From assembly GCA_021513695.1 (NCBI GenBank), contig CP084166.1:1-64000 (forward strand): a stretch of DNA of 64,000 bases. The letters run 5' to 3'. Below, in pieces: positions 23,018 through 52,999 of this stretch (positions within the stretch are counted from its first letter, which is position 1; each line of letters opens with the position of its first letter). The notes beneath the pieces were generated by a model. That model saw nothing but the letters and a program-made list of their open reading frames with translations. It was not told where the DNA came from and ran no database searches. This DNA comes from Candidatus Heimdallarchaeum aukensis (GTDB lineage: Archaea > Asgardarchaeota > Heimdallarchaeia > Heimdallarchaeales > Heimdallarchaeaceae). Position numbers and translations under genes: made by a program.

Positions 23018-25990
23018 TTAAATTGGGACTAGAATGTCGTATAAATTGTTATCGCCTATTTTTTCTTTTAGTAGTTTTTTTAGTTTTTGATTAATATCTT
23101 TATAAAAACGTAGTTTCATTTCAGAACTTAATTGCCAAGTGTTAAACTCTTGATTCACAATTAGGATATTTTCTTGCATTCTTTTAATTACATCTTCAAT
23201 CGAAAATACTGATGAGAATAAAATACCCATTTCTGAAATATTAAGATTTATTGTGTTAGGTGTTAATTCTTGTACTTTCTGCAGTAACGAAAGAGTATAT
23301 TTTAGTTCTGGAAAACTAATTAATTGTCCTTCTAGTTCTTGAATTGTAAATTGCCCAATAATATTAGCGTCGACTAATTGCTTAAATGGTTCAGTAAGCT
23401 CGTTGTATTCTCTGAAATACGAAACTGTGTAAAGATTTTCTAATTGTTCTCTTATTTCTTCTTTAATAATTTCTAGTGATTTGTTTGGTTCTTTATTTTT
23501 TAGTGCTAAATTAATAGTTGGAGATAGATGAATAAGAGATTCTTGAGTGATTTCGAATTTATTGTTTTCTGGAAGTTTTACTTTAAGAATATCAAAGGGT
23601 AACTCTGGAAGAGCTATATAGAACTCTTCTTCATTTTCATTTTCATGTATTGAATTATCTAAAAGAAACTCTCTAAAGTAAAGAGAAAATTTGGATAATT
23701 GACGTTTTAAACTTTCACTCCCCACAAAAGCTTTTTTCCTTAAGCCTAATTGTTGTTTTAGAATTTCTAATAGAGATGGGATTTCTATTTTGTTAAAAAC
23801 CACTTTGTTTTTATCTAAGGAAGGAACCCATTTATCTGAAGAGCCATATTCAACAGCTATTCTTCCTGCAGTAGTTGTTTCAGAGAATAAAGCTTCCATT
23901 CCATAACTAAGAATTAAATTAGTTAATGGAATGTAAGTAGCTTCGCTTTTACCAACAACAGCGATTCTAATAAAACCATACCCTGGATAAATAGAGTAAT
24001 TTCTAACTATTTCTCGGAGATCATTGTTTAAAACTATGGATAAAGTCATAGGATGAGTTAGCTCTATGGTATTTCCAACCATAAAAAAGTATCCAATTTC
24101 AAAGAAATCTTGATATTTGTTTAGAGGAGGAAGGAATCTTATTATATTGTCAATCGTTATAATCAATGGTGTTTCTACAAGCTGTAGAAGCTTCTTGTAT
24201 TTAATCTCTACATCTAGTTCTTGAAAACGCTCCTCATTTAATGTTCGTATGAGAAAATCCAAGAATTCACAACTTGTAATAAAATACTTATTGTCTTGAT
24301 AGGTAAAAAGGATACCATTATCAACCTTAGATTCCTCTATTTCATCAATAATTGAGAAAAATTTGTCTATTGAAATGTCTTCTTCTTTTTGTATTTTGTC
24401 TTGTTCATTTAGATTTAAACTAATCAAAAATTTATTGATAAATTCTATATTCTCATTTTCAGTAATAAAATCTTCTAGTGCTTTATAGCTTATTGAATAT
24501 TTTAAGTCTGAAACGCTAAAAGAAAATTTGTCATTCTCTTGACTTAAAAATTTAATAGTTTCTGAAAAGTTTTTTAACATTACTTTTCTATTTAACTCAA
24601 TATAAGCTAACATTTCTTTGAAAAATTGTACTTCATCATCAAAAAAAGCATAGTCAATATCAGTGTTATTTGCTGAATGCTTTGTTAAGTTTTTTATTAT
24701 TGAAATGAAGAAAGCCTTCATTCTAGTATCTTTCATTGCAGCTTGTTCTATAATATCAAGTAATATTTTGAGTTCGGGTGAGTTAGAACTCCTTTTTTCC
24801 ATTTCAGAAAGAATTTCATGAGGAGTCAACTCTTTACTTTTTTTCTCTCCAAAAGTGTGTTGAATTGATGATTTAGGATTATACGAATACCTGAGAAACT
24901 CTGATACTTTTTTTATTTTGAAACCTATATTACGAATATCTTTAGTCCAGTTTCCAGTTTCTAGATCACTAGCAAAAGAAAAAAGGTTCAGGAACTTATC
25001 TTGACTAAGTTCCAAGATCGTTTTGTTTTCTAGTTGTTCTGTATCTAGCGAATGCTGTTTATTTATTTTGTACAAAATATGCGCAAAATAAGCCATCACA
25101 CTTATACCAAAAGCTCTTTTTCTTTTTGAAAAAAGTGATTCTTCAGGATTTTCATTTAAGATTCGCATGAGTTCTCTAGAATAACTATTCAATAATCTAA
25201 TGTTAATAAATTCATTTTTCTTATCTTGTTTTTCAGGGCTTAAAGGAAAAATTGCTGGAACCATAAAGTTGTCAAATATCTGCGATGATTCATTTTCTTC
25301 TTTTATTTGTTTGAATCTATCAAAATTTTCCTTCATCAGCGAAGAAAAACTCCCCATAAAAAGAGACAGAGTTGGAAAAAAAGGTTCTTCTTTCTTCGAG
25401 TTAATGATTGAAAGTAGAACTTCTGTTTCTGGAACAAGAGAGTTAAGCATTTTTAAGATGCTCAATGTGCGTGAATCGATATTTTCTGTTTCTACAGTAA
25501 GTCCAATATGGGACGAAGATTTAAGAAAAGATTCTATTTCACTCATTATACTATTTATGAGTTCACGCAACTTTGATCCGTCTTCTTCTATTGATCTTAA
25601 TGTAGGATTAAACAAACACTTTCTGTACATCACTGCAGCTAAGTTCTGCCAATCTTCAAATTCTTCTATGTTTTTGTCAAGAATTGATAGAAAAGTAAGA
25701 AGAAACTCTTCTCCATAAAAACTGAATCTGGGAATGGTAACCAAATGACTTAAAATTTCATTAGTGTTGAACTTCTTTAATTTTTTATCTTTTTCAGCGA
25801 TTTCTTCTTTTTCTACTTTTTTTTCTCCTTTACTTGTCAAAACTTGTTTAATTATCTCTCTTGCAGGTTCTTGCGCCTTACTTCTACTTAATCCGTATGT
25901 GCGAATAAGATAGGTTACGACCAACCCAAAAGCGTCATCTCCATTTTCAATGATATTCTCCTTAAGTTCATCAGTAATATAGTAACTCAT
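23018..25990 (-). CDS. large hypothetical protein (990 aa), no recognisable catalytic motif
   Basis: Long uninterrupted ORF with coding-like composition. No Walker A, no metal-binding clusters and no TM segments seen. Confidence 0.5.
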   Translation of the reverse strand: MSYYITDELKENIIENGDDAFGLVVTYLIRTYGLSRSKAQEPAREIIKQVLTSKGEKKVEKEEIAEKDKKLKKFNTNEILSHLVTIPRFSFYGEEFLLTFLSILDKNIEEFEDWQNLAAVMYRKCLFNPTLRSIEEDGSKLRELINSIMSEIESFLKSSSHIGLTVETENIDSRTLSILKMLNSLVPETEVLLSIINSKKEEPFFPTLSLFMGSFSSLMKENFDRFKQIKEENESSQIFDNFMVPAIFPLSPEKQDKKNEFINIRLLNSYSRELMRILNENPEESLFSKRKRAFGISVMAYFAHILYKINKQHSLDTEQLENKTILELSQDKFLNLFSFASDLETGNWTKDIRNIGFKIKKVSEFLRYSYNPKSSIQHTFGEKKSKELTPHEILSEMEKRSSNSPELKILLDIIEQAAMKDTRMKAFFISIIKNLTKHSANNTDIDYAFFDDEVQFFKEMLAYIELNRKVMLKNFSETIKFLSQENDKFSFSVSDLKYSISYKALEDFITENENIEFINKFLISLNLNEQDKIQKEEDISIDKFFSIIDEIEESKVDNGILFTYQDNKYFITSCEFLDFLIRTLNEERFQELDVEIKYKKLLQLVETPLIITIDNIIRFLPPLNKYQDFFEIGYFFMVGNTIELTHPMTLSIVLNNDLREIVRNYSIYPGYGFIRIAVVGKSEATYIPLTNLILSYGMEALFSETTTAGRIAVEYGSSDKWVPSLDKNKVVFNKIEIPSLLEILKQQLGLRKKAFVGSESLKRQLSKFSLYFREFLLDNSIHENENEEEFYIALPELPFDILKVKLPENNKFEITQESLIHLSPTINLALKNKEPNKSLEIIKEEIREQLENLYTVSYFREYNELTEPFKQLVDANIIGQFTIQELEGQLISFPELKYTLSLLQKVQELTPNTINLNISEMGILFSSVFSIEDVIKRMQENILIVNQEFNTWQLSSEMKLRFYKDINQKLKKLLKEKIGDNNLYDILVPI

Positions 25991-26342
25991 TGTCTAAATT
26001 TACGGCAAAAATCTTCCTTTAAAATTTATTGTTACTCTAAGATGGGATAATAAATCAATAATAAGTTTAACTATTTTTTTCTTTTAAAAAAAGCATTTTT
26101 TTAATTTTGATAGCTAAAAATTGATTTGAGTGTATATTATTAGGAAGGCTGTGAAATTCTATCTAAATGTTATAGAGCATGCTTCTATTTTTTACGTAAT
26201 TTACAGTTGTTGAGGAAAAAGGAGAGGAAAAAGGGAAGAGAGGAAGGAGAGGGGTTTTTATAGAGAAAAAAAGTAAAATAAAAAGAGAAGAAGAAAAAAC
26301 AAGAGAAAAAATAAACAGAAAAGAAAAGAAGGAAGGAAAAAA

Positions 26343-27800
26343 ATGGTGGAAGACGTCGTCAAAACCTTGAAAGTGAGAATAAAGAAGGAGGTATTGACGA
26401 CGAGGAAGAAGGAAAGGTTAAGGAGAATAACGGGGAGAGACACGAGGATAATAGAGAAGTATGTGAGAATAATACATCACAACAGAAGAAAAATATGTGC
26501 TAAAACTAAAAAAGGGAAAATAAGAGTCCATAGAGGAAAACTAGATGAACTGACGCTAACTACTTCAAAAGTTAAAGAAGAAGAGAGAAGAAAGACTGTT
26601 CCTCACGATCTGAAGAAAATGTTCCCTTATTGTTCTCACAATGAATTCCAAGAATGTAGAGATATAGCCGTACAATTATATGAACAAGGGTATAGACCTA
26701 ACAATACTCGTCCTCCAATAAAGAGAGTTAGAAAACAACTAATTAATGCAAAGAGGTTTGTTCTCGTTCATCTGCCAAAAGAGAAGAATAACACTCTCAC
26801 TCGTTGGTGGGTGGGGATAAGAGACTCGTTAGATACGTGGAGAAGAAACACACCTTATCATCAGAAACTATGGTTACCTTTAGAGATGAGCACTTTCCAC
26901 CAGAAAGAGTTAAAGAAAGGAAGAATAAAAAGTTTAGAACTAAGATATAAACGTTCTACACATGAGTGGTGGGTGTATTTCCAACTAAAAGTCATTCCTC
27001 CTCCTTCTTTTTATCTCACAAGTCAAGGAGATAATTCTTCTTCTCTTCCCCCAGCTGTGCTGGGAATAGATCTAGGGATAAGCATTCCTGCTGCAGGAGT
27101 GCTTCTAACCCCTAAAAAGAAATTAACAAGTGAAGAAATAAAATTCTGGTATACCAAACAGTGGAATAAAGTTAATCACCGATATAAACTCAAACTTTCC
27201 CGTCTTCAGAGGAAAGCGGCTTTAAACGACCAGTCGGGTAAAAAACACCAGATTTACCGTTTTCTTGGTCTTCTCCGAAGAAGATATAAAAACGTTAAAC
27301 GAGCCTATATTTACCAATTTGTAAACGACATCGTGCAGACGATAGAGACTTATGCACAAGTGTATGACCTTTTTGTCGTTGTAGGTTATCCTAAACACAT
27401 TCGCGAGGAGAAAGGAAAGAGAAAAAGTACTCATAAGTTTCGTAGAAAACTTCATCAGTGGAACTTTTCTCTTGTTCTTGCCCTTCTTCGTCGAGCATTG
27501 ATACTTCGAGGATTTGAACCTCACCAAATATTAACGATAGAAGAAAGAGGGACATCCTCTCACTGTACTCGTTGCGGGAGGAAAGTTATCCGTCCCGTTA
27601 GAGGTTTAGTCCATTGCTCTTCTTGCAATTACACTTTCCACTCTGACCTCACAGGAGCAATGAATATCGCTCGTAAGTTCCTTGGTGCTCTTTTCCGTCC
27701 TCAAGGAAACACTATCACTGATTACCTCACTGGTCATAAATTCGGTCTCACTCATTTCACTGTTTGCCGAGGGCTCAGCCATTGGTTGCAGCCCCATTAG
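26343..27800 (+). CDS. tnpB: TnpB (IS200/IS605 OrfB, RuvC-like RNA-guided nuclease family)
   Basis: RuvC-I 'VLGIDLGIS'. C-terminal zinc finger 'CTRCGRK...CSSCNYTFHSDLTGAMNIARKF' (CxxC...CxxC followed by the RuvC-III-like HSD...N.A motif). Confidence 0.85.
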   Translation: MVEDVVKTLKVRIKKEVLTTRKKERLRRITGRDTRIIEKYVRIIHHNRRKICAKTKKGKIRVHRGKLDELTLTTSKVKEEERRKTVPHDLKKMFPYCSHNEFQECRDIAVQLYEQGYRPNNTRPPIKRVRKQLINAKRFVLVHLPKEKNNTLTRWWVGIRDSLDTWRRNTPYHQKLWLPLEMSTFHQKELKKGRIKSLELRYKRSTHEWWVYFQLKVIPPPSFYLTSQGDNSSSLPPAVLGIDLGISIPAAGVLLTPKKKLTSEEIKFWYTKQWNKVNHRYKLKLSRLQRKAALNDQSGKKHQIYRFLGLLRRRYKNVKRAYIYQFVNDIVQTIETYAQVYDLFVVVGYPKHIREEKGKRKSTHKFRRKLHQWNFSLVLALLRRALILRGFEPHQILTIEERGTSSHCTRCGRKVIRPVRGLVHCSSCNYTFHSDLTGAMNIARKFLGALFRPQGNTITDYLTGHKFGLTHFTVCRGLSHWLQPH

Positions 27801-28801
27801 ACAAAAAAGAACTTAACTAATTCTCTCCTCTTGTGTTAGAGTTAGTTTTCCTTCTTTCTTTTTTGTCTCTCGTGGAGTGAAGAAAGAAAGAAAAACTTTC
27901 TTTTCTTCTTTATGATTCCCACGATTCGTGTATGATGTCTGTCTCAACCCCTTCATAGCATTGTATGGCTTGGTTGAGTTCAAGAGATTAAACTCCTTCT
28001 GTTTTTTCTCTTGCAAGACAGAGTGCGAAAAACTTTACGTAAGAAAGTAAATCATGTTGAATGAGCAAAGATTATATAATGTGTATGACCTTTTTGTCGT
28101 TGTAGGTTATCCTAAACACATTCGCGAGGAGAAAGGAAAGAGAAAAAGTACTCATAAGTTTCGTAGAAAACTTCATCAGTGGAACTTTTCTCTTGTTCTT
28201 GCCCTTCTTCGTCGAGCATTGATACTTCGAGGATTTGAACCTCACCAAATATTAACGATAGAAGAAAGAGGGACATCCTCTCACTGTACTCGTTGCGGGA
28301 GGAAAGTTATCCGTCCCGTTAGAGGTTTAGTCCATTGCTCTTCTTGCAATTACACTTTCCACTCTGACCTCACAGGAGCAATGAATATCGCTCGTAAGTT
28401 CCTTGGTGCTCTTTTCCGTCCTCAAGGAAACACTATCACTGATTACCTCACTGGTCATAAATTCGGTCTCACTCATTTCACTGTTTGCCGAGGGCTCAGC
28501 CATTGGTTGCAGCCCCATTAGACAAAAAAGAACTTAACTAATTCTCTCCTCTTGTGTTAGAGTTAGTTTTCCTTCTTTCTTTTTTGTCTCTCGTGGAGTG
28601 AAGAAAGAAAGAAAAACTTTCTTTTCTTCTTTATGATTCCCACGATTCGTGTATGATGTCTGTCTCAACCCCTTCATAGCATTGTATGGCTTGGTTGAGT
28701 TCAAGAGATTAAACTCCTTCTGTTTTTTCTCTTGCAAGACAGAGTGCGAAAAACTTTACGTAAGAAAGTAAATCATGTTGAATGAGCAAAGATTATATAA
28801 T
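27360..28801 (+). repeat. perfect head-to-tail tandem duplication, 2 x 721 bp (27360..28080 and 28081..28801)
   Basis: Both reverse-strand ORF pairs (27606..27797 with 28327..28518, and 27813..28016 with 28534..28737) are identical at offset 721. I compared the unit ends base by base at the three junctions. Confidence 0.9.
28081..28521 (+). pseudogene. truncated tnpB 3' fragment (C-terminal ~147 codons) created by the tandem duplication
   Basis: Translation is identical to TnpB from 'VYDLFVVVGYPKH...' to the stop. It lacks the N-terminal two-thirds, including RuvC-I. Confidence 0.7.
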
Positions 28802-30168: not shown

Positions 30169-31116
30169 TTACTTCTTGAACTTGATATTCGAATATTGAT
30201 ATTCTACACTTTGTAATCTAATACTCTTAAATTCTTCTGTAGCTTCTTTTTTTGCTTTCAAAGCCATTGCTGAATTTCTTAATGATCTCTTTCTTTTTTT
30301 GCTGTTCAAATATAGTGTTATCGCTGCAATAAATGCTGCAACAGCTAAGATAAAGATAGTTCCATTATCTCTCTTTAAACCCGTGAGAATAAATGTAAGC
30401 GTAACTTGGTGGCTATTTTCGTCATCTGATCTTATACACAGCCAGTATTTTGAATCATCATCAATTGTAAATTTTCTTAGAAAAGTTCCTGTAGTAACTG
30501 TATATGTATCCGAATAAATTTTCCAATCTTCAACAACTTCAGGATCAGCTAAAGCTACGTAAACTTTAACGATACCAAATCCTCCAATAAAGTCAATGTA
30601 TGCATCATAATCTCCATAAGTTAAAGATTCAAGCGAAATAATATAATCATCATTGTTTGCTGTAATTTGCCAACAAACTGAATTGTTTTCTGTTGTATAT
30701 TTTTCTGAACTCTCTTTTATCAAATCTTCTGCCTCTACGATCAAAGTAATGCTTATAGTTTTTGCTTCTTGATTTTTTATCAAGATTGTATAATTACCTA
30801 CTCCAATAAAGTGAAAAAGAATACTATTCACCGACCTTCTATTTACAATTTCAGAACCTGTTTGATTTGTTAAGGTAAAAGAGAAAGCTAAATTCTCAGA
30901 TGTTGTTATCTTAATTGTTCCTAAGAAAGTATTTTTTTTTCCTATTACATATTTGAATTCATCATTAGGGTCAATAGAAATTCCATTCTTATCGCCCAAT
31001 GTGATACGAATTGGAAGTAAAAGAAGGATTGTAAAAACAGCAAAGAATATAATTCGAGTTTTATTTTGACTCAACTTAATCCCTCTTAATGTTCTTATAA
31101 TATCTTTATTAAACAA
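30169..31116 (-). CDS. secreted/membrane-anchored protein (hypothetical), N-terminal signal anchor and C-terminal TM plus basic tail
   Basis: The N-terminal hydrophobic segment 'IIFFAVFTILLLLPI' and the C-terminal 'IFILAVAAFIAAITLYLNSKKRKR' are both membrane-like. Confidence 0.4.
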   Translation of the reverse strand: MFNKDIIRTLRGIKLSQNKTRIIFFAVFTILLLLPIRITLGDKNGISIDPNDEFKYVIGKKNTFLGTIKITTSENLAFSFTLTNQTGSEIVNRRSVNSILFHFIGVGNYTILIKNQEAKTISITLIVEAEDLIKESSEKYTTENNSVCWQITANNDDYIISLESLTYGDYDAYIDFIGGFGIVKVYVALADPEVVEDWKIYSDTYTVTTGTFLRKFTIDDDSKYWLCIRSDDENSHQVTLTFILTGLKRDNGTIFILAVAAFIAAITLYLNSKKRKRSLRNSAMALKAKKEATEEFKSIRLQSVEYQYSNIKFKK

Positions 31117-31152: not shown

Positions 31153-32172
31153 CTTAAGAAGCATGTCCAAAAATTCTTTTTCACCTACTAAACGGTCCGA
31201 AGGAGTAAAAGGTAGTTGTAACAGAGGAGAGAACTGTACAAGGTAGAGAGGATGGTGGAGGGTAAACGATCAAGGATTGGGGGAAGAGAGAGTTTGAGGA
31301 GACCAAAGACGTGTTCGATACTACTACGATACTCGGGGTGATAATTATGATAAACGATACAGACCAGGGCAGAGACGATGAGCTTGAATTATTGGTTCGA
31401 GGGGAGGAGGAGAGGGATAACGAGCATTACTTTTTGGGGGAATAACAGGAAAAAAAGAATGTTGGCTAAGAAGACCGACGATATTTTCTGTCCAGTAGGC
31501 ACAGTCTCCATAAAATCGCAGGAAAGGTCTCAAGAGTGCAGAAGGAAGTTTCTGCCAGAGCAAACCGAAGACTTTACTATCGTGAGTGTTACTAGCAGAA
31601 TGAGCAAGAGAGACTATAGCTCGAGAGGGTAAACCAACTATAAGGTGTATCTTCCAGAAAAGTTTGGAGGTTTTCTTTAGTCCTCCTCTTGCCCACTTGA
31701 GAAAACGCCAAACAGAAGCTTGACGAATTTTAAACCCTGAACTATCCACCGCCATAGCTTTCAACCCTTTTTTCCTTACTATTTCCCTACCTAAATCTAT
31801 TATCCACCGCTCCAGCAACTCACTTTCTGTCGCTCTCCACACTGCATGAAAAGTAGATTTGGAAGGAATCTTCTTCATCCACCCCTCTTCTATCAAAAAA
31901 GCGCATAAAGACAACTTTTCCTCTAACTTCCTCCAAGCAATTCCTTCTATTCTCGCAATAATTGCTAAAGCCAGTATCACCCACCTTTCTGCTATTCTTT
32001 TTCTCCCTCTCTTACTTTCTCTCGGTTCCTCTTTCACCAGTTTCTTAAGGAAAGGTTCATTAATGCTTATGAATTCTCTTGCTTTGTGGGGGTCTATGAT
32101 CTGAAAGTAAGCCATACTTCCGACATAAACCCCCACATTAATAAAAATTAATTTTTGGGCATGCTTCTTAAG
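31153..32172 (-). mobile_element. IS5/IS4-like insertion sequence (~1.0 kb) with 13-bp terminal inverted repeats
   Basis: 'cttaagaagcatg' (31153..31165) and its reverse complement 'catgcttcttaag' (32160..32172) flank a DDE transposase gene. The region has a purine-rich tract and higher GC than the neighbouring sequence. Confidence 0.55.
31345..32136 (-). CDS. DDE transposase, IS4/IS5 family
   Basis: Three DDE-like segments: 'AVDSSGF', 'NTHDSKVF', 'YGDCAY'. Basic N-terminal part. Confidence 0.65.
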   Translation of the reverse strand: MGVYVGSMAYFQIIDPHKAREFISINEPFLKKLVKEEPRESKRGRKRIAERWVILALAIIARIEGIAWRKLEEKLSLCAFLIEEGWMKKIPSKSTFHAVWRATESELLERWIIDLGREIVRKKGLKAMAVDSSGFKIRQASVWRFLKWARGGLKKTSKLFWKIHLIVGLPSRAIVSLAHSASNTHDSKVFGLLWQKLPSALLRPFLRFYGDCAYWTENIVGLLSQHSFFPVIPPKSNARYPSPPPLEPIIQAHRLCPGLYRLS

Positions 32173-32258: not shown

Positions 32259-35147
32259 ATGGCTATCAAAACCAAAAAAAACTCCACAAAGAAGAATTTA
32301 ATTACTGTTTTTGTAATTTTCTTGGTTTGTTTTAGTTTTATAAATTGTTTAACCTCTAACTTGTTAACTGTAGTAGCTTCAGGAAGCGGAGATTTTCCAC
32401 CTCCAAGTAGTGGAGAATGGACAATATCTCAAGAAACAATAGTTAATTCTGAAGTTATTTATATTAATGATTCAGTTTCAATAGAAAGTGGAGGATCTTT
32501 AGTATTAGAAAATTGTGTAATAGAAATGAATGGTAATGAAGATGACAAAGCTAATTTTATAGTTAATAATAATGGTAATCTTACAATAATTAATTCTAAA
32601 ATAGAAGCTTTTTCTGATTATTCATGGTACATCGAAGCAGAAGAAGGAGCTTCACTTAAAATTACTGACTCAACCCTAATAAACTTCAAAGGAAGCCAAT
32701 ATACATCAGTAATTACACTCTATAACAATTATTCTGAAATTACAAACAATAGTATCTCAAACTTCAAATATAAAGCCATTTTTGCTAGATTTACTAGTCA
32801 TCATAATAATATTACAAAAAACAAAATAAGTGGAGGGCTTGTTGGTTTTGAAGTAGTCGATGGATGGTACAACGAGATAAATGATAATGAGTTTCACTTA
32901 CTATCACAATTTGCGATTGCTATTAATAATGGTAGTTTTTCAAATATTCTTCGAAATAAAATATTTAATGTTTCTTCTATCGCAATCAATTTCCAAAAAT
33001 CAAAGAATGTTTTATGCAATAACAACAATATTTCTACGTCTAAAACTGCAATTGAGTGCTATTCAATCTATAATAGTAGTATCTCTAATAATATGTTCTC
33101 TAATATTCATGATTATTCAATTAGAGTATATACAGGGAATAATGTCACAATATCAAACAATTCAATTGATAATAGCGATTTAGCAAAAGGCATTATTAAT
33201 TCAGCTATTAGCCTGAGTGCGTGTAATAATTTTTCTATTAATGAAAATTCAATAATAAATACCCCAAGAACAGCTCTAGAAATTTTAAGTTCAACAAATT
33301 GTAGAATTTTTAACAATGTTTTTTCCATTAATAATTACTCTATCTTTATCTCTAGTTCTAATTATCTTGAAATTAAAAACAATTTACTATCTTATTCGAA
33401 TGATTATTCTATGTGGTTTATTAAATCAGATTTTTCATTGTTTGAAAACAACACAGTTAATTTTGGTCAATCTTGTGGAATTAGACTAAGTAGCTGTAAC
33501 AATAATTCTATATTAAGGAACATCATATTCAATAATAGTAAATATGGTATCGATATTTCTTCAAGTAATAATAATACGATACTGGAAAATGTTTTTGTTT
33601 TAAACAATAATGGTTCTATTCAAGCTTATGATAATGGATTAAATAATAGCTGGTATAGTAATTTAGAATCTGTTGGTAATTTTTGGAGTGATAATAATGG
33701 ATCATCTTTCTATTTAATAAATGGTGAATCAGGTTCTATGGATATTTTTGCGAATTATTCTGATTACGATAAAGATTTTATTCCTGATTATTATGAACTT
33801 GAAGTTGGTTTAGATATAACAATAAATGATGCTAATGACGACTTAGATGGGGATGGTTTGTCAAACTTCGAAGAATTTACTCTGGGTACTTTTCCTAATG
33901 ATCCTGATAGCGATGATGATGGTTTAATTGATTCAGTAGAAGTAGACTTGAAAACTGATCCTATGTCTAATGATACAGACAATGACAACCTTATTGATGG
34001 GTTAGAAATTCAATATGGATGTGACCCCTTTTCAAATGATACAGACATGGATGGACTAGATGACTGGTCAGAGATATTCTACTACTTCACTGACCCTTTA
34101 GATTATGACACTGATGGTGATGGGTTATCTGACTCTGATGAAGTTTATGCATATAATACAGACCCATTGGACGCTGACACTGATGATGATGGCTTAAATG
34201 ATGTAACTGAAGTACTAGGTTATGGTACTGATCCCAATGATGCAGATACAGATGGAGATGGATTAACAGATTACGAAGAAGTGATTGAATATTTTACTGA
34301 TCCTACGGATGTTGATACTGATGGTGATGGTTTAACAGATTATGAAGAGGTAAAATATTATGGAACAAATCCTAGGAAAGCTGACACTGATGGTGATGGA
34401 ATTTCTGACAATGATGAATTAATTCAAGGAAAAGATCCATTAGTCAATGAGAAACAAAGAAATGTAAGGATAATAATTATTGTATTTTCTGCTTTAGGTT
34501 CTGGTATACTGTTTATAGGATTAACTGTGCTGTTGATACTATTCCTGATAGAAAAGAACAAAAATAAAGAACAAGCATTGTTATCCCTTTTCAAGAAAAA
34601 AATTAGAGAACTAGAAAAGAAAATTAATATTATTGAAACAACAAAAATTGAAGAACTTATGTCTAAGACAGAAGAAAGAGCGAAAATTGATACTTTTTTC
34701 AATGAATTCCTTGAGGTTTTAGTGGACTTCGCAACATATTTTCTGGAAAATGAGGAATTAATTGAGAATAAAAAATGGTTACAAGCCAAAAAGAAGCTAA
34801 ATGAAGAATTAGATAAAGTGAGAGATTGGATTAATAAAAATCTACGTGCTCTAAAGGAATATGATATTTATGACAAACTAGTAAACCAGATAGATGGATT
34901 AGAAAATAAAGAAGAAATTAAGATTAGCAAGTTAGAAGCTTATAAGGAGATTGAAATTGCAAAAGGTATTTTGAGAGAATTCAAAAAAGTAGTAGAGAAA
35001 ACTTCTCCTTTTATCAACAAATTTTCCTATTCTACTTTAACTAAATATTGGGAGATTACAACTGAACTTATATTTGCTAATATGACACAGCTAGAAAAAA
35101 TTGAGGAAAAAATAAAAGATCTACTGGAAAGAGAGAAAACTCTATAA
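32259..35147 (+). CDS. large type-I membrane surface protein: signal peptide, parallel beta-helix (PbH1/NosD-like) repeats, thrombospondin-type-3-like Ca-binding repeats, TM helix, ~210-aa cytoplasmic coiled-coil tail
   Basis: N-terminal signal '[14 protein letters not shown]'. Repeated 'N-x-I-x-N-N' beta-helix rungs. About 10 '[12 protein letters not shown]'-type repeats. TM '[27 protein letters not shown]'. C-terminal K/E-rich heptads. Confidence 0.7.
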
Positions 35148-35497
35148 TCTTAATGTTGTTTTTTTCTATTTTTCTTCTTTTACTATTTCTTTTTTAGTTA
35201 AATATTAATTTTAAACTTTGTAACTAGTTTTTCTTGAGAAAGGACTCTTCTCCAGTGAAAAAAACCATCTTCTTGGAATTTGGTCATAATAAAAACATAC
35301 TACCTTTTCGGCAATGGAAATTACCTTTTTTTCCTCTGAAAAGTGGATGCAAATTTATTTATGTGAAGTACTCATTAACCGTCCTAAACGTTTTTTCAAT
35401 GTTCTACCTATGTTTACAAAATATCAGAAATATGTAAAAAGAATAATAAAAGCAAAATAAAAGTAAAAAGAACAAGAAAAAAAGATATAAAAAGATA

Positions 35498-38400
35498 TTA
35501 TTTTCTAGATCTATTTGTTTTTATTGCAAGAATGGTCAAGCCTAAGAGTCCTAGAACGAAATAGAGGAAACTGAATGGATTTTTGGTTGTAGTCTCTTCT
35601 GGATGACTGTTTGAGTCAATAGGGTTAAAACCATTAGACGCTTCGTATCCATCAGTCCAACCATCTCCATCAGTGTCATTATTATGAGGATCAGTATTCC
35701 AATAGAATTCATCTCTATTAGTTAAACCATCTTCATCAGGATCTTCATTAGCATCATCTACTAAAGGATCTAAGTTGTTGTCTACTTCCCAACCATCAGG
35801 CATACCATCATCGTCGGTATCACTGTCAGTAGGGTCGGTGTTATTTGTATATTCTCCTAGATTTGATAAACCATCACTGTCTTTATCATCAGACCCATCA
35901 TCTGTTAATGGGTTTAATTCATATTTTAGTTCCCATCCATCGTCCATTCCATCTCCATCAGTATCTGCGTCAGTGCTTTGAGTGCCTAAAACTACATCTT
36001 CAAGGATATCATCTAAACCGTCTCCATCTATATCAGTTCCACTTATTGGATAAAGATCGACTGAAGAAGCCGTTCCTTGAATATTGGTATAAGTTCCTGT
36101 TGTTCCATTGTAGTCTGACCAATAGTTACCTACTTTTATTTCATCATTATACCATAGATTATTTGACCCATCATCTATAGCTAAAGTAATTTGGTCAAAG
36201 AATAAATAAGAAGCTGAAACGAAATAATTTTGATAGATTAGAGCATTAGAAATCGTAGAAGATAGTGAGATTAAGCAATAAATTTGCCTAATTTCTCCAT
36301 TAATATCAATTATGTCGAATATTTTATTGTACGTAATAATTGCTCCATCAATATCTCCATCTAAACGAATCCCTGCATTAGATACCGTGTTTTCTATGAT
36401 ATTTATAACATTTCTAGTAATCTCGAGATTTTCCCATTGTCCACGAATGTATATTCCTATAGTTCCTCCAGAATTTATTTCATTGTTGTCTATAACAAAA
36501 TTATTTCCTCCATCATTGGCGAAATAAATACCACTGTAAGATGATCCTAGATTTGTTGTTATTTGGTTATATGAGATAGTTATATTGTTGAAGATATTAC
36601 CACTAGCAACATAAATTCCTTTATTACAGTTGCTTATTTGGCTATTAGTTATTATTACATTGTCTACTTTTCTAGCATAATCAGCATAAAGTTCAATTCC
36701 TGAATCTACATTGGAGATGATGGTGTTATTTATTATTAAGCCGTCTGCGGCATAGACATCAATAGCGATTTCTTCATAATTTGATATTATTACATTTTTT
36801 ATTGTAAGATTTTCACTATCAAAAATATATATTGCTTTTGTTGATGTACCATCATGTAAATTTAGGTCTTCAAGAAAAACATTTTTTGAAGTATCAATAC
36901 TTATACTTCCATGTTCAATCTCTGCATTTACAAAAGTAATATTGGTAACTTCGTAAAAGTTTGAGGTACCTGAAAGGGTGTTACTTGTTATTTCGAAATT
37001 ACTAGAATAAGAAATGTAAAACGAGGTATTGGATGACAATATAGCATTATTTGTTATTTCTGTGAACTTTTCTGGCAGATTTGCAATAGTAAAAGCTCTA
37101 TCTACATTTTCAATATAATTGTTGGTAATGTATGTATTTCCTTCCAAAGCGTTACCATAAGAGGAAGTTATTGTGAAAACTTTTTCTGAATCTGAAATAT
37201 CGTTATTATCAAAAGTGACATTACCCACGTAAATTAGATCAAAAGCGGTATTATTAGCGTCTACTATCTCATTATTCACTATTGTAATATTATCATTTAT
37301 TACATAATTTGTGTTATATTTTTTATTTATATCAAGACCGTAAGATACACCTTCTATTATGTTATCTTTAAAAGTCAGAGTAATATTTGCAGTAGTAGAA
37401 TAATCTAAACACATTCCTTTATTTGCTTCATTAATAGTATTTCCTGTCACATTTAATGATTTCGTGTCATATACTATAATTCCATTATAGGCGTTGATAA
37501 ACTCGTTAGAAATTATAATTATTTCTTCATCAGCATATTGATCAATAGGATTCATAATATAAATCGCATTATCGTAAATATTTTCGAAACCGTTACCGGA
37601 AACAGTAATACTTTTTGAATCTTTAATTAAAATTCCTAAATCTGTATTTGATATAGAAAGTGATTTAATGTTAATATTAGTACAATCAATTAGAAATATC
37701 TGACCATAAATGTTAGTGTCAATATTTTTCGTATCGTTGCTAACAAAATAACCTACTTCTTTATTATTTACTTTGTTTCCCTTTACTATTATTGTATTAG
37801 CTTTTTCTTTAAGTGGTGCTAAAAACATCCCATCATTTACTAAAGTATTATTAACAATCTCAATAGTATCTGTTGTTTCCTTAGCAAGATAGATTCCATA
37901 TCCTTTATTTGACTCTATTGAATTATTTGCTATTATTTCATCATTTGATCCACCATTAATTAACAATCCAATATCATCGTTATTATTTATTGAATTATTT
38001 GCAATAGTAATAAAGTCTCCAGTAATATCTATACCTTTATTGTTGAATGAACAGTTATTTCCAGTTATAATTACGTTGTTTGAACCAGTTGAATAAATCC
38101 CTGCGTTACTATTAGATGAACAGGTATTATTTGCAATTATTGCGTTATTAACACCGTAAATGTTTATTCCATTATTACTTCCTGTTATGGTATTATTTAT
38201 TATCTTCTGACTATTAGTCATATAAACATTAATTCCATCTTCATTTCCACTTACAGTGTTTGATTCAATAGTTGCGATTCCATCAGCCACAGATACAATA
38301 TATATTCCCTTTCTAGATGCTTCAATAGAACAATTGACTATCTTAAAGTAAGCTGTTACGCTTAAACTATGAATATAAATTCCATAGTCTGATGATGTCT

Positions 38401-38614
38401 GTATTTTTAAGTTACTGATTATGTAAGGATCGTCTACTGTACCTGCTCCATCAACAACACCATTAGCTGAAGTAAAATCACTATCTGAAGCAATTACTAT
38501 TGGGTCATGTGTTGTGTATATTTTCAGTTTAGACTGTACGTTATTTAAACTTACAATCAATCCACTGCTAATTACAAGCATTATTAAAAACAATGATTTA
38601 TAGTTTTTCATCAA
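35498..38614 (-). CDS. large secreted surface protein: signal peptide, long parallel beta-helix region, TSP3-like Ca-binding repeats, C-terminal TM anchor with basic tail (sortase-type sorting signal candidate)
   Basis: Signal 'LFLIMLVISSGLIVSL'. Many 'NNTI.GN..GI' rungs. Acidic repeats '[14 protein letters not shown]', 'DSDTDDDGMPDGWE'. C-terminal 'NPFSFLYFVLGLLGLTILAIKTNRSRK'. Confidence 0.7.
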   Translation of the reverse strand: MMKNYKSLFLIMLVISSGLIVSLNNVQSKLKIYTTHDPIVIASDSDFTSANGVVDGAGTVDDPYIISNLKIQTSSDYGIYIHSLSVTAYFKIVNCSIEASRKGIYIVSVADGIATIESNTVSGNEDGINVYMTNSQKIINNTITGSNNGINIYGVNNAIIANNTCSSNSNAGIYSTGSNNVIITGNNCSFNNKGIDITGDFITIANNSINNNDDIGLLINGGSNDEIIANNSIESNKGYGIYLAKETTDTIEIVNNTLVNDGMFLAPLKEKANTIIVKGNKVNNKEVGYFVSNDTKNIDTNIYGQIFLIDCTNINIKSLSISNTDLGILIKDSKSITVSGNGFENIYDNAIYIMNPIDQYADEEIIIISNEFINAYNGIIVYDTKSLNVTGNTINEANKGMCLDYSTTANITLTFKDNIIEGVSYGLDINKKYNTNYVINDNITIVNNEIVDANNTAFDLIYVGNVTFDNNDISDSEKVFTITSSYGNALEGNTYITNNYIENVDRAFTIANLPEKFTEITNNAILSSNTSFYISYSSNFEITSNTLSGTSNFYEVTNITFVNAEIEHGSISIDTSKNVFLEDLNLHDGTSTKAIYIFDSENLTIKNVIISNYEEIAIDVYAADGLIINNTIISNVDSGIELYADYARKVDNVIITNSQISNCNKGIYVASGNIFNNITISYNQITTNLGSSYSGIYFANDGGNNFVIDNNEINSGGTIGIYIRGQWENLEITRNVINIIENTVSNAGIRLDGDIDGAIITYNKIFDIIDINGEIRQIYCLISLSSTISNALIYQNYFVSASYLFFDQITLAIDDGSNNLWYNDEIKVGNYWSDYNGTTGTYTNIQGTASSVDLYPISGTDIDGDGLDDILEDVVLGTQSTDADTDGDGMDDGWELKYELNPLTDDGSDDKDSDGLSNLGEYTNNTDPTDSDTDDDGMPDGWEVDNNLDPLVDDANEDPDEDGLTNRDEFYWNTDPHNNDTDGDGWTDGYEASNGFNPIDSNSHPEETTTKNPFSFLYFVLGLLGLTILAIKTNRSRK

Positions 38615-44073: not shown

Positions 44074-44958
44074 TTAAAACCAACTTATTACATTGTATAT
44101 TTGTTCTTCTACATCTTTTACTTTATCACTTATTTCTGATACATCATTTATTGAATCGAAGAATTTGTTCAAAATGTTTCTTATTTTTTCTATACCATGT
44201 GCAATATCTTGATATTCAAAAGGATAAGCTAGAGCAACAATACAATAATCCTTACCTTCTAATCTCTTATCTAATTGATTTTTGTCTTTAACAATATATA
44301 GAAGACTTGTAGCATAATAGTCTCTCATTTTAGGGATTCTAACAGGCCCCGAGATTATGGATGAACTTTCAAGTTTATCTATCTCTCCCATTCCAAACAA
44401 AGTGTAAAGCATAACGCCCAAGGATAAAATGACTGTTTCTTTTATGTCTTCATATTCTTCTGGAATTCTGTTTACATATATAGGTTCAGTTCCAGAGGTT
44501 CCAAAACGATAAAAAGCTAAGAATATTTTGTTTTTATCATAACGAGATTTCTTTTTTTTGATGTTTTCAATAATTTCTGGTATTTTACTGAAAAATCTTC
44601 CTCTTTTCACAATATAATCTTGAGCGCCCATTTTCATAGCTTTGACAGCTACTTCTTCAGATCCTTGTCCTGTAATTATAAGGACAGGAATATCAGTTAT
44701 TTTTCTGATCTCTTCCAAAATGTCCAAACCTGTAATGTCTCCTAAAAGATAGTCTAGCAATATTATATCGAAGTCATATTTATATTCTTGAAGAATGTTT
44801 AATGCCTCTTCTTTTGTCTGAGTTATATGTACTTCTACATCATGAAAAGCCTTAATTATATTGATTTTGATAAGAAAGGCTATGTCACTGTCATCCTCCA
44901 CAAGTAGTACACGTAGATCATTAGACATTGTTTGTTCCTCGAAGTATAAGAAATACAC
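44074..44958 (-). CDS. response-regulator receiver (REC) domain protein with ~170-aa C-terminal domain of unknown function
   Basis: 'LRVLLVEDDSDIAFL...IILLDYLLGDITGLD...DYIVK' gives the D-D...D...K receiver signature. No HTH output seen. Confidence 0.75.
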   Translation of the reverse strand: MYFLYFEEQTMSNDLRVLLVEDDSDIAFLIKINIIKAFHDVEVHITQTKEEALNILQEYKYDFDIILLDYLLGDITGLDILEEIRKITDIPVLIITGQGSEEVAVKAMKMGAQDYIVKRGRFFSKIPEIIENIKKKKSRYDKNKIFLAFYRFGTSGTEPIYVNRIPEEYEDIKETVILSLGVMLYTLFGMGEIDKLESSSIISGPVRIPKMRDYYATSLLYIVKDKNQLDKRLEGKDYCIVALAYPFEYQDIAHGIEKIRNILNKFFDSINDVSEISDKVKDVEEQIYNVISWF

Positions 44959-45261: not shown

Positions 45262-46251
45262 TTAATGTTCAATAAATTCTTTCTCGCTTATAACTTTACA
45301 TGTTAATGTTTTAGCAGCAAAAGGTATGAAACTTTTTTCTAGCTCCTTTTTAACCTTTTCAAAAATCAAATAGCGATTTTCTTCACTTGTTAGATCCAAA
45401 GTAATGATTTCAGTTAAATTTTCTATTAATGTAAGCAAAGGACCTTTTTCTATTAGTACATACTCTGTTGTTACTAATAAAGCAATGTTATGATAACTAA
45501 TAAACAGTAGTTTATATTCCTCAAAGTTAATTTCTTCCATTGAACTAAGTTGTTTTTTGTTTGTTGAATTTAGCCACTTATTCTCATAAGCACTAATTAT
45601 GTTCTTAACTTTTTCTCTGGTTCTTGTATTATCGTGTATATGAAGATTAACTCCGTCTTTTTTAATGAAAATATCTACCGATAAAATGTTTGGCATTAAT
45701 CCTGTTTTTTTACTAACCAACTTGCTTATTAACCAATTCATCGCATCGCTTATGTATTCGCCTGTTTTGACTGAAATGAAAAAGAATCGAAAACTCATCT
45801 GACTTTCAATTGAAATTAATTTGTTAAGTTCAAATCCTTTAACAATTTCTTCAATAACTCTTTCTTTTTCTGTAATTAAGTCCATCTTATTACCTAGAAA
45901 AAGCACTGGTATATCTTTGTTTTTTATCCATTCTAAAATAGTATAGAACCATTCTTTACTTTCTGGTAAACTTTCTAAATTTGAAGCGTCAAAAATGAAA
46001 ATTAAAGCAGAGGAAAGATTAATGTAATTTTTCCAAATGTGCTTTCTGAATGCTTGGTGTCCCCCCATATCCCAAATTTGAAGGGGAAAACCTTGGTACT
46101 CGGTAAATTCTACATCAACACCTAAAGTCGGAGGAGAAGAAACAAAGGTTCCCGATAGTAACCTTTGGGTAAAGCTAGATTTTCCGGCTTGTGGAAGGCC
46201 AGTTATAGCAATAGAGAATCTTGTCATTTTTGAGTTCACTTCAATTAGCAC
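45262..46251 (-). CDS. Arf-family-like small GTPase with ~140-aa C-terminal extension (roadblock/longin-like domain candidate)
   Basis: G1 'GLPQAGKSS', G3 'WDMGGHQ', G4 'GNKMDL', G5 'SVKTGEYISDAMNWL'. All resemble Arf/Arl/Sar proteins. Confidence 0.8.
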   Translation of the reverse strand: MLIEVNSKMTRFSIAITGLPQAGKSSFTQRLLSGTFVSSPPTLGVDVEFTEYQGFPLQIWDMGGHQAFRKHIWKNYINLSSALIFIFDASNLESLPESKEWFYTILEWIKNKDIPVLFLGNKMDLITEKERVIEEIVKGFELNKLISIESQMSFRFFFISVKTGEYISDAMNWLISKLVSKKTGLMPNILSVDIFIKKDGVNLHIHDNTRTREKVKNIISAYENKWLNSTNKKQLSSMEEINFEEYKLLFISYHNIALLVTTEYVLIEKGPLLTLIENLTEIITLDLTSEENRYLIFEKVKKELEKSFIPFAAKTLTCKVISEKEFIEH

Positions 46252-51727: not shown

Positions 51728-52999
51728 ATGGGTTTTGCATTGAAACAAAAAAAGATTCCCAGTTTTGTAATTATTCTACTTCTTTTTTCCTCTCTCATCG
51801 TTCTTGATGTTGTACGTCAAGGAAAATTTAGATCAGAGAAAAACGAGATTATTCTACGGATGTTATATACTAGCGAAAAAAAAGCTTGGATAAACACTGT
51901 CACTGTGGATTTTCCTGAGTGGTTTTCTTCTCGGAATCCAGACCTATCTGTTCATCTGGAGTTTGAAGTTTTAGGTACTAGATCCTCTATGATTTCAATT
52001 TTGTCAGGAGAGAGTAAACCTGTTATCTGGAGTCCAGCTTCTAGTGTTTGGGTTCCCCTTCTTGATTGGTCTTGGAAGAAAAAATTTGGTTTTTCTATCA
52101 TTGATGAAGAAAAAGTGAAATCACTTGTTTCTTCTCCTATAATTATTGGTGTTTGGAAGAGTTACGCTGAAAAACATAATTTAACATCATGGTCTGACCT
52201 ATATACTTTATCCTTTAAGGACCTTAAACTTGCACATACTTCTGCACAAGAATCAAATTCTGGTTATATGGCGGTTTTATTGGAAATCGCTGCTGCTAGT
52301 GGAAAACCTCCAAATGAAATAACTTTAGATGATCTAAAAAATTCGACTATCCAAAACTGGTTAAAACAAGTAGAATCTTCTGCAGTGTTATACGGCTCTT
52401 CTACTGGCTTCTTAGCAAAACAAGCTGTTCAGTTAGGTCCTGCAGGAATAAATGTTATGATATTATATGAGAATTTAATAATTGAAACTGCAAAAGATGG
52501 CGAAGCTTATGCAAAATGGAACGATAGTATCATTGCTGTTTATCCTTCTGAAGGAACATTATGGAGCGATCATCCAATTGTATTATTGAATGCTAGTTGG
52601 GTTTCTCCTGAAGAATATTTTGCTGCAACAGAATTTGAAAAATTTTTATTAAGTAAAGAAATACAGAAAAAAGCTATTCCTTTTGGTTTTAGACCTGGAA
52701 ATCAATCAATCATTAATGATATTGATGTGTTAGAGGAAATAAACTCTATCTTTAAAGAAGAGAACGGTGTAAAACCTACACTTTCCATTCCACTTTTTAA
52801 AACACCAACTGATGGAGAAGTTCTTGACAGAATTCCTGATTTATGGCTAAAAACAAGGGCAACATCACTTGAAAGCCCAGAAAATAACACGGATGTTCAA
52901 CTAGGTTTCTCTCCTTATTCAACCTATTTAGTTTTTCTAATCGCTTTTCTACTGTTAATTCCCATAAAAAATCGAAAAAATAGGCGGGTGAAAGACTAG
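51728..52999 (+). CDS. ABC transporter substrate-binding protein (membrane-anchored)
   Basis: N-terminal anchor 'FVIILLLFSSLIVL'. Its position upstream of the permease and ATPase genes points to an SBP. A C-terminal hydrophobic tail is present. Confidence 0.5.
   Translation: MGFALKQKKIPSFVIILLLFSSLIVLDVVRQGKFRSEKNEIILRMLYTSEKKAWINTVTVDFPEWFSSRNPDLSVHLEFEVLGTRSSMISILSGESKPVIWSPASSVWVPLLDWSWKKKFGFSIIDEEKVKSLVSSPIIIGVWKSYAEKHNLTSWSDLYTLSFKDLKLAHTSAQESNSGYMAVLLEIAAASGKPPNEITLDDLKNSTIQNWLKQVESSAVLYGSSTGFLAKQAVQLGPAGINVMILYENLIIETAKDGEAYAKWNDSIIAVYPSEGTLWSDHPIVLLNASWVSPEEYFAATEFEKFLLSKEIQKKAIPFGFRPGNQSIINDIDVLEEINSIFKEENGVKPTLSIPLFKTPTDGEVLDRIPDLWLKTRATSLESPENNTDVQLGFSPYSTYLVFLIAFLLLIPIKNRKNRRVKD

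Follow-up and report, generated by a model that had tools for sequence, protein, structure and literature searches.

The A/B gene pair and its predicted extracellular regions

The first 64,000 nucleotides of contig CP084166.1 of Candidatus Heimdallarchaeum aukensis (the window) contain two convergent genes, A and B, for predicted surface proteins. Both proteins combine a Sec-type N-terminus, a right-handed parallel beta-helix, repeats of the thrombospondin type 3 (TSP3) kind and, towards the C-terminus, a single transmembrane helix. B belongs to a known type of protein and is ordinary within it. What is new is A, which, judged from its sequence, joins a beta-helix/TSP3 surface protein to an undescribed, genus-restricted cytoplasmic domain. 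The two open reading frames (ORFs) outlined in an initial annotation, with 962 residues on the forward strand and 1038 on the reverse strand, are both present (Table 1). The word "giant" used there overstates their size, as paralogs in a related genome have 2071–2162 residues.

Table 1. Coordinates of the A/B gene pair, its features and neighbouring elements in the window
Feature	Residues	Nucleotides	Strand	Description and basis
Gene A		32259..35147	+	962 aa; ORF listing, Pfam and NCBIfam matches; type I membrane protein
A, signal peptide	1-42	32259..32384	+	Sec-type; basic n-region with 5 Lys, hydrophobic core; hydropathy
A, head	~43-500	32385..33758	+	right-handed parallel beta-helix; 'PPPSSGxW' N-terminal cap, 'GNFWSD' C-terminal cap
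A, TSP3 repeats	502-720	33762..34418	+	ten acidic repeats D-x-D-x-D-G-x-x-D-x-x-E, predicted to bind calcium; pattern match
A, transmembrane helix	738-764	34470..34550	+	single helix; hydropathy
A, tail	765-962	34551..35144	+	198-residue domain after the transmembrane helix, all-helical
Intergenic region A/B		35148..35497		350 bp; T-rich tracts just 3' of each stop codon; direct sequence reading
Gene B		35498..38611	-	1037 aa from ATG at 38611; 1038 aa from TTG at 38614
B, head	~29-855	36050..38530	-	right-handed parallel beta-helix; 'HDPIxI..D.DF' N-terminal cap, 'GNYWSDY' C-terminal cap
B, TSP3 repeats	861-991	35642..36034	-	six repeats; pattern match; DNA repeat family D3
B, C-terminus	1014-1038	35501..35575	-	transmembrane helix FSFLYFVLGLLGLTILAI and 7-residue basic stub KTNRSRK; hydropathy
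990-aa ORF	1-990	23018-25990	-	
2.6-kb insertion		26182-28774		two ORFs (26343..27800, 28054..28521)
315-aa membrane protein	1-315	30169-31116	-	divergent from A
IS5-family element		31160-32166		transposase ORF 31345..32136 (-)
Response regulator		44074..44958		
Arf-family GTPase	1-329	45262-46251	-	
Solute-binding protein		51728-52999	+	ABC-transporter component

The N-termini of A and B are basic and then hydrophobic, in agreement with the signal peptides proposed initially. In A, cleavage is likely at ASG|SG, and the signal-peptide segment is conserved in the gene fragment of the closed genome of Ca. Heimdallarchaeum endolithica PR6 (CP084167.1). A gene call identical to A is found on a 69-kb Logan contig. 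For B, the ATG at 38611 (MKNYKS...) is the most likely start: it is preceded by a TGA stop two codons away, and the PR6 ortholog begins at the same codon (MKNYKS). The length of 1038 residues thus applies to the TTG start, and 1037 residues is the likelier value. The public gene call of B (1027 residues) cuts off the basic n-region, and an exact-sequence lookup of the 1038-residue version returned no record.

Pfam and NCBIfam models support the beta-helix in both proteins. The head of A matches PF13229 (Beta_helix) with E 2e-30 and 105.9 bits, above the gathering cutoff (25.9), the NosD domain PF05048 with E 1.4e-20 and 74.1 bits (cutoff 23.6), and TIGR03804. It contains 21 N-x-S/T sequons and its N-terminal cap is common to the homologs P0003, P0005 and P0006. 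B matches PF13229 in five stretches (E 4.5e-45, 153.5 bits) and PF05048 (E 8e-36, 123.9 bits). Its N-terminal cap differs from that of A and is found in many NosD-like archaeal proteins.

Eight to ten TSP3 repeats had been counted for each protein. This count holds for A, with nine canonical units and a degenerate one (period 22–26 residues; PF18884, E 4e-36, 122.9 bits, cutoff 25), but B has only six (E 1.8e-06, 28.1 bits), which alternate between a 'DGMxDGWE..LNPL' and a 'DGLxNxxEY..TDP' type. At the DNA level the units have a period of 69 nt and copies are 60–86% identical. No FG-GAP repeats were detected by Pfam in A or B.

The protein sequences of A and B align with 28% identity over 555 residues (E 6e-12). 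A recent duplication or gene conversion, for which the initial annotation had suggested comparing the repeats, is ruled out: at the DNA level nothing exceeds 82% identity over 90 nt, and shared stretches are shorter than that. Since identity is low, the N-terminal caps differ and the DNA bears no trace of a recent exchange, A and B are regarded as old, distant paralogs.

Pectate lyases, many glycosidases and carbohydrate-binding proteins with CASH domains all adopt the right-handed parallel beta-helix fold. The heads might accordingly be tethered extracellular polysaccharide lyases or hydrolases that degrade polymers for uptake, rather than adhesins. The strength of the beta-helix matches fits such a role, as do homologs with enzyme domains, namely a subtilase (P0055) and a glycosyl hydrolase (P0043). 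On the other hand, the Pfam and NCBIfam matches of A and B are limited to the generic models Beta_helix, NosD and TSP3, with no catalytic family among them, and sequence searches of the PDB with either protein gave no match. Furthermore, no genes for sugar uptake or sugar catabolism adjoin the locus, which is bordered instead by those of a metallo-beta-lactamase-fold protein, an MFS transporter and a small membrane protein and by insertion elements. A degradative role is thus possible but rather unlikely, and heads that bind are preferred.

The probable C-terminal anchor of B

The C-terminal string of B is exactly as quoted in the initial annotation, with a hydrophobic helix and a basic stub (Table 1). 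The resemblance to an archaeosortase or exosortase sorting signal that was noted there is not borne out by the models. Compared with the C-terminal sorting-domain models of NCBIfam (PGF-, PEF-, Loki- and Heimdall-CTERM), the tail of B matches none at E<=10. The same result was obtained for the tails of P0020, the closest distinct homolog of B, and of the solute-binding protein. Control tails were recognized in this search. That of P0044 matches Loki-CTERM (NF033507; E 2.1e-08, 34.1 bits, cutoff 19.9) and, below the cutoff of 24 bits, Heimdall-CTERM (NF045529; E 0.023, 15.1 bits). The tails of P0035, P0074 and P0054 match PEF-CTERM (TIGR03024) with E-values of 2.6e-05, 4.4e-06 and 4.7e-04, respectively, the first two alone clearing the cutoff of 23 bits.

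In about half of the ~85 beta-helix homologs, the C-terminus likewise consists of a transmembrane helix with a short basic stub; most show no shared motif before the helix. The complete plan, in which TSP3 repeats and an acidic linker connect the beta-helix to the transmembrane helix and basic stub, is found again in the archaeal proteins P0004, P0014, P0020, P0021, P0030, P0031 and P0032. In B, residues 1001–1037 differ from the PR6 ortholog in a single position (R1034K). The motif preceding the helix is confined to orthologs, and the proline of 'NPF' is not kept in P0020.

Within ~100 kb of accessible sequence, the combination of signal peptide, C-terminal helix and basic stub occurs in B and in one solute-binding protein only. 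This ABC-transporter component has a signal peptide and ends in GFSPYSTYLVFLIAFLLLIPIKNRKNRRVKD. The two tails are loosely alike (FS-aromatic...IKxNR), with NPFSFLYF...AIKTNRSRK in B and GFSPYSTY...IPIKNRKNRR in the solute-binding protein; the likeness comprises these two examples only. Among the multi-pass membrane ORFs of the window there is no archaeosortase (EamA, MFS, ABC-permease or no match).

B, and perhaps the solute-binding protein too, could be a substrate of an archaeosortase-like enzyme, the tail being a lineage-specific tripartite signal that is cleaved off in exchange for a lipid anchor, as in PGF-CTERM proteins. The shape of the tail would suit this, with a hydrophobic helix and then a basic cluster at the extreme C-terminus. 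Asgard models (Loki-CTERM and Heimdall-CTERM) do exist in NCBIfam, some beta-helix homologs carry such signals or PEF-CTERM, and the solute-binding protein provides a second tail of similar appearance. Against it stand the silence of all CTERM models where the controls respond, the loss of the proline in the nearest non-orthologous homolog and the lack of an archaeosortase among the membrane proteins of the window. According to a 2018 review, archaeosortases are reported only from a subset of Euryarchaeota, and stable C-terminal transmembrane anchoring without archaeosortase is known in archaea, as in Sulfolobales, which retain such an anchor (PMC6098224). A literature search gave no paper that ties archaeosortase, Loki-CTERM, Heimdall-CTERM or TSP3 repeats to Heimdall or Loki lineages, and nothing on sortases appears in the supplements to the PR6 genome paper. 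Sortase-type processing of B is therefore unlikely.

Because no CTERM model matches while the controls do, and because the window has no archaeosortase, the tail of B is best read as a plain stop-transfer membrane anchor. Most beta-helix homologs share helix and stub without a common motif, and for this reason B is considered a plain membrane-anchored protein. It cautions that not every C-terminal helix followed by a basic stub is a sortase signal.

The predicted cytoplasmic tail of A and variation of the locus between strains

The transmembrane helix of A, which does not differ between strains, is followed by a tail of 198 residues. The initial annotation was correct in placing a single helix here, but the tail is somewhat shorter than the ~210 residues it gave. 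As a signal peptide precedes this single, later transmembrane helix, the tail is predicted to lie in the cytoplasm. This corresponds to type I topology with a large cytoplasmic domain, the receptor-like architecture that had been proposed.

The description of the tail as a Lys/Glu coiled coil is right in composition (33% Lys and Glu) and in helical character, but the hydrophobic periodicity is 3.6 rather than 3.5 residues (spectral power 0.71 and 0.04, respectively). The local heptad score of 0.40 lies modestly above that of shuffled sequence (0.31 ± 0.04). For structure prediction and profile searches two tail alignments were built, A1 with five sequences and A2 with seven. AlphaFold2 (AF2) with A1 gave an all-helical model with five long helices (25–39 residues each), packed antiparallel with breaks (predicted local distance difference test, pLDDT, 78.5; predicted TM-score 0.69). 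It supersedes a single-sequence run of residues 726–962 of low confidence (pLDDT 51.8). The best model of the tail is an antiparallel bundle of several helices rather than one long coiled coil, a term that fits it only loosely.

The tail is not of low complexity and without conservation, an outcome considered in the initial annotation; it appears to be a helical domain with invariant aromatic motifs. A phmmer search with the tail against 1.84 billion representative proteins gave four matches (E 2.9e-05 to 3.4e-04). One is the PR6 ortholog fragment, which is 91% identical with mostly conservative changes, and the other three (P0088, P0089 and P0090) have 24–34% identity. P0088 and P0090 contain many TSP3 repeats, a transmembrane helix and an A-type tail, while P0089 is a fragment of 252 residues with the A-type tail only. 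P0090 is assigned by name to Heimdallarchaeaceae.

When one genome per GTDB species was scanned, three loci with A-type tails emerged, all in PR6: the ortholog of A and two large genes (L005 394..6882, 2162 residues; L006 538..6753, 2071 residues). The two paralogs are matched by the tail in tblastn with E-values of 9e-18 and 6e-11; in both, an FG-GAP beta-propeller head and dozens of TSP3 repeats precede the transmembrane helix and A-type tail. At L006 11993-12298 there is another, weak match that resembles the tail. With A1, a scan of JGI metagenomes found no relatives of the tail, and a word-indexed profile search found orthologs and P0089 only.

The seven-sequence alignment has 17 invariant columns, all of which are kept in A. 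The family motifs are LVDFAxYF..WLxxKKxLNxxLDKxR and FI[DN][EK]F[TS][FY]SxLxxYW, and identity to A is 23–33% in the PR6 paralogs, P0088 and P0090. By these searches the tail represents a tiny, previously undescribed family that appears restricted to Heimdallarchaeum / Heimdallarchaeaceae. Homology to the 103-residue cytoplasmic tail of P0028 is ruled out (hhalign probability 0.7%).

A lacks a C-terminal extension of ~110 residues that is present in the paralogs and all other members of the family. No remnant of it was found downstream of A. The extension is winged-helix-like by sequence pattern alone, without a significant family match, and ends in the conserved peptide AIDSLLxxYDEWxKxxxGKK. 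Extension and terminal peptide are also present in a soluble protein of 291 residues encoded next to one of the PR6 paralogs (L006 7657-8532, reverse strand). Pfam and NCBIfam searches with the tail of A and the paralog extension gave sub-threshold noise only (winged-helix region of CSN8/PCI, E 0.035; KATNA1_MIT, 0.48). A search of the PDB with profile A2 gave nothing significant (best E 0.3), and structure searches with the tail model returned only generic helical bundles.

The A/B locus is also present in PR6, with ~92–93% nucleotide identity, and in the metagenome-assembled genomes (MAGs) GCA_054383455.1 and GCA_054383115.1. The nearest named proteins and loci come from Heimdallarchaeaceae and PR6, in line with a Heimdallarchaeum-like lineage. 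Orthologs of A in two Heimdallarchaeaceae MAGs have 98% amino acid identity. The ratio of non-synonymous to synonymous substitution rates (dN/dS, omega) of A is 0.23 overall, which indicates purifying selection. The same value is found for B compared with its intact 1038-residue ortholog in PR6. Synonymous divergence (dS) is uneven along B, however. In codons 1–220 (~660 nt), dS is 0.44–0.81 and nucleotide identity to the PR6 and MAG orthologs is 80–88%; in the rest of the gene, dS is 0.087 and identity 93–100%. Omega stays near 0.23 throughout, while dS rises 5–9 fold. Diversifying selection on the head is thus ruled out in favour of recombination, and the first ~220 codons, which would form the distal end of the beta-helix, appear as a recombination mosaic between strains.

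In PR6, A is a pseudogene (L004 1859-6594) with three ORF fragments and a frameshift, interrupted within the TSP3 region by a TnpB-type insertion element. A is therefore dispensable. The intergenic region of PR6 additionally contains an element of ~1 kb with an integrase-like transposase ORF. In MAG GCA_054383455.1, B has a 53-nt deletion and a frameshift (L002 14569-14594), which could be an assembly error. Since both genes are inactivated in some relatives, and an IS5-family element lies upstream of A in the window, the genes appear to be accessory, dispensable and turning over between strains.

The IS5-family element lies 93 bp upstream of the start codon of A. Its inverted repeats are AGCATGTCCAAAAATT / AATTTTTGGGCATGCT at the termini, and the duplicated target comprises 7 bp (TCTTAAG). 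The element is not present in the two related MAGs or PR6; it may therefore affect the promoter of A. At the other end of the gene, the stop codons of A and B are 350 bp apart. The T-rich tracts behind them are likely archaeal oligo-T terminators. The region comprises tandem T-rich and A-rich repeats, and a terminator scan found no bacterial-type hairpin in it. A and B are read as two independently transcribed genes.

The 2.6-kb insertion relative to the related MAGs has a higher G+C content (0.37) than the window (~30%). It encodes two ORFs with a TnpB/Cas12f-like TNB domain, identical in their last 40 residues. The TnpB-like ORF of the element that interrupts A in PR6 (L004 3667-5486) closely resembles them at its C-terminal end. 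The 315-residue membrane protein divergent from A is its neighbour in related genomes too. A hydrophobic N-terminus is followed by a beta-rich outer part, a transmembrane helix and, as a tail, 42 residues rich in Lys and Glu that end in KFKK. The outer part matches EMP24/GOLD, but weakly, below threshold and without significance (E 0.0017); if true, the presence of a p24-like protein in an Asgard archaeon would be of note.

Further away, the window encodes a family-B DNA polymerase and a small GTPase of the Arf family (329 residues; Pfam Arf, E 2e-28), both in keeping with an Asgard archaeon. The GTPase is one of the 'eukaryotic signature' proteins typical of Asgard archaea; here it has a C-terminal extension of ~150 residues and is adjoined by a response regulator gene. 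The 990-residue ORF has no Pfam or NCBIfam match and ~94% nucleotide identity in related MAGs. Rfam and tRNA scans of the window gave no match.

Proposed roles and comparison with known systems

Most probably (roughly 65%), A and B are Asgard surface proteins that are anchored in the membrane by their C-terminal helices, B by a plain anchor and A with an additional docking tail. The signal peptide would direct head and stalk to the outside via the Sec pathway. Calcium, predicted to bind to the acidic TSP3 repeats, would stiffen the stalk and therefore hold the head away from the single membrane. The beta-helix heads would bind glycans or the surfaces of partner cells or possibly cut them; binding is most likely, catalysis being a live alternative. 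The C-terminal helix would retain each protein, in B as a stop-transfer anchor. The tail of A most likely serves as a cytoplasmic docking or clustering module that couples surface proteins to an internal partner. It would be a shortened version of the module, without the winged-helix-like extension and terminal peptide of the paralogs. Asgard cells have no ordered S-layer and many protruding surface proteins, which have been proposed to establish the cell-cell contacts that bear on eukaryote origins (PMC9834061).

Several points weigh against this reading. The absence of an archaeosortase applies to the 64-kb window only. The tail model was confident in one of five AF2 runs and is built on an alignment of five sequences. 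A is a pseudogene in PR6. Between A and its 98%-identical orthologs the tail has five substitutions (one synonymous, four non-synonymous), too few to demonstrate selection on the tail itself.

It is unlikely that the tail has no present function and A is a decaying copy of a larger receptor family on its way to a pseudogene: although A lacks the extension and terminal peptide found in all other members, with no remnant downstream, is broken by frameshift and insertion in PR6 and has uninformative tail dN/dS values between close strains, the reading frame of 198 codons is open in four genomes at 30% G+C, the invariant family positions are all retained, the PR6 fragment has changed mostly conservatively and the remainder of A is under purifying selection. 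A docking tail is preferred.

A more far-reaching idea is that A and the two PR6 paralogs form a Heimdallarchaeum-specific class of adhesion receptors, with swappable heads (beta-helix or FG-GAP propeller) on calcium-binding stalks, one transmembrane helix and a conserved helical-bundle tail that would recruit a cytoskeletal, membrane-remodelling or signalling partner. The full-length PR6 tails add the winged-helix-like module and the terminal peptide, both common to the soluble neighbour protein. This idea is speculative and doubtful at present; if true, it would amount to an integrin-like outside-in link in one of the closest archaeal relatives of eukaryotes. Adhesin-like surface proteins with a conserved cytoplasmic domain, as in the family of A, represent the minimal requirement for passing information or force across the membrane. 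Should the tail have a defined partner, it would offer a tractable entry to the coupling of surface and interior. Because the tail family is confined to one genus and its role is putative, the finding is a useful annotation and a lead. B illustrates a typical Asgard surface protein and its probable anchoring.

Archaeal beta-helix proteins of the NosD/CASH type (PF13229, PF05048) resemble A and B in their signal peptide, Asn-rich rungs, 'GNYWSDY' cap and C-terminal transmembrane helix with basic stub. Dozens of homologs in Asgard archaea, Thermoplasmatota and methanogens follow this surface-protein plan, without the large cytoplasmic domain that A adds. An assignment to NosD itself (TIGR04247, cutoff 300 bits) is ruled out: B reaches 27.7 bits, A gives no match and no nos genes are present at the locus. 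TSP3 repeat proteins (PF18884) such as CglD and MtsD of Myxococcus have the same tandem D-x-D-x-D-G-x-x-D-x-x-E pattern with a period of ~23 residues. Equivalence to CglD (NF033765; 55.4 bits, cutoff 400) or MtsD (NF047639; 42.6 bits, cutoff 800) is likewise ruled out, as the matches cover the TSP3 region only. Unlike in these proteins, the repeats of A and B are placed as a stalk next to the membrane, and the proteins that carry them are archaeal and of type I topology. Archaeosortase substrates with CTERM domains are similar to B in the terminal hydrophobic helix and basic cluster, but B has no signature motif before the helix.

SlaB, an S-layer stalk protein of Sulfolobales, is built from beta-sandwich domains with an extracellular coiled coil and belongs to an ordered S-layer. 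As predicted for B, it is Sec-exported and its C-terminal helix keeps it in the membrane permanently; its lineage lacks archaeosortase according to the 2018 review (PMC6098224). Unlike in Sulfolobales, no such ordered layer is present on Asgard cells (PMC9834061).

Integrin alpha chains are comparable to A by analogy only. They too cross the membrane with one helix, between a large calcium-dependent outer part and a cytoplasmic tail, and FG-GAP repeats occur in the PR6 paralogs. A differs in its beta-helix head, and its tail is unrelated by sequence or fold to integrin, talin or any solved structure and to known tails that bind adaptors. The two PR6 paralogs, P0088 and P0090 are like A in their TSP3 stalk, transmembrane helix and homologous helical tail. 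The PR6 paralogs differ from A in their FG-GAP heads, the dozens of TSP3 repeats and the extra tail module with its terminal peptide.

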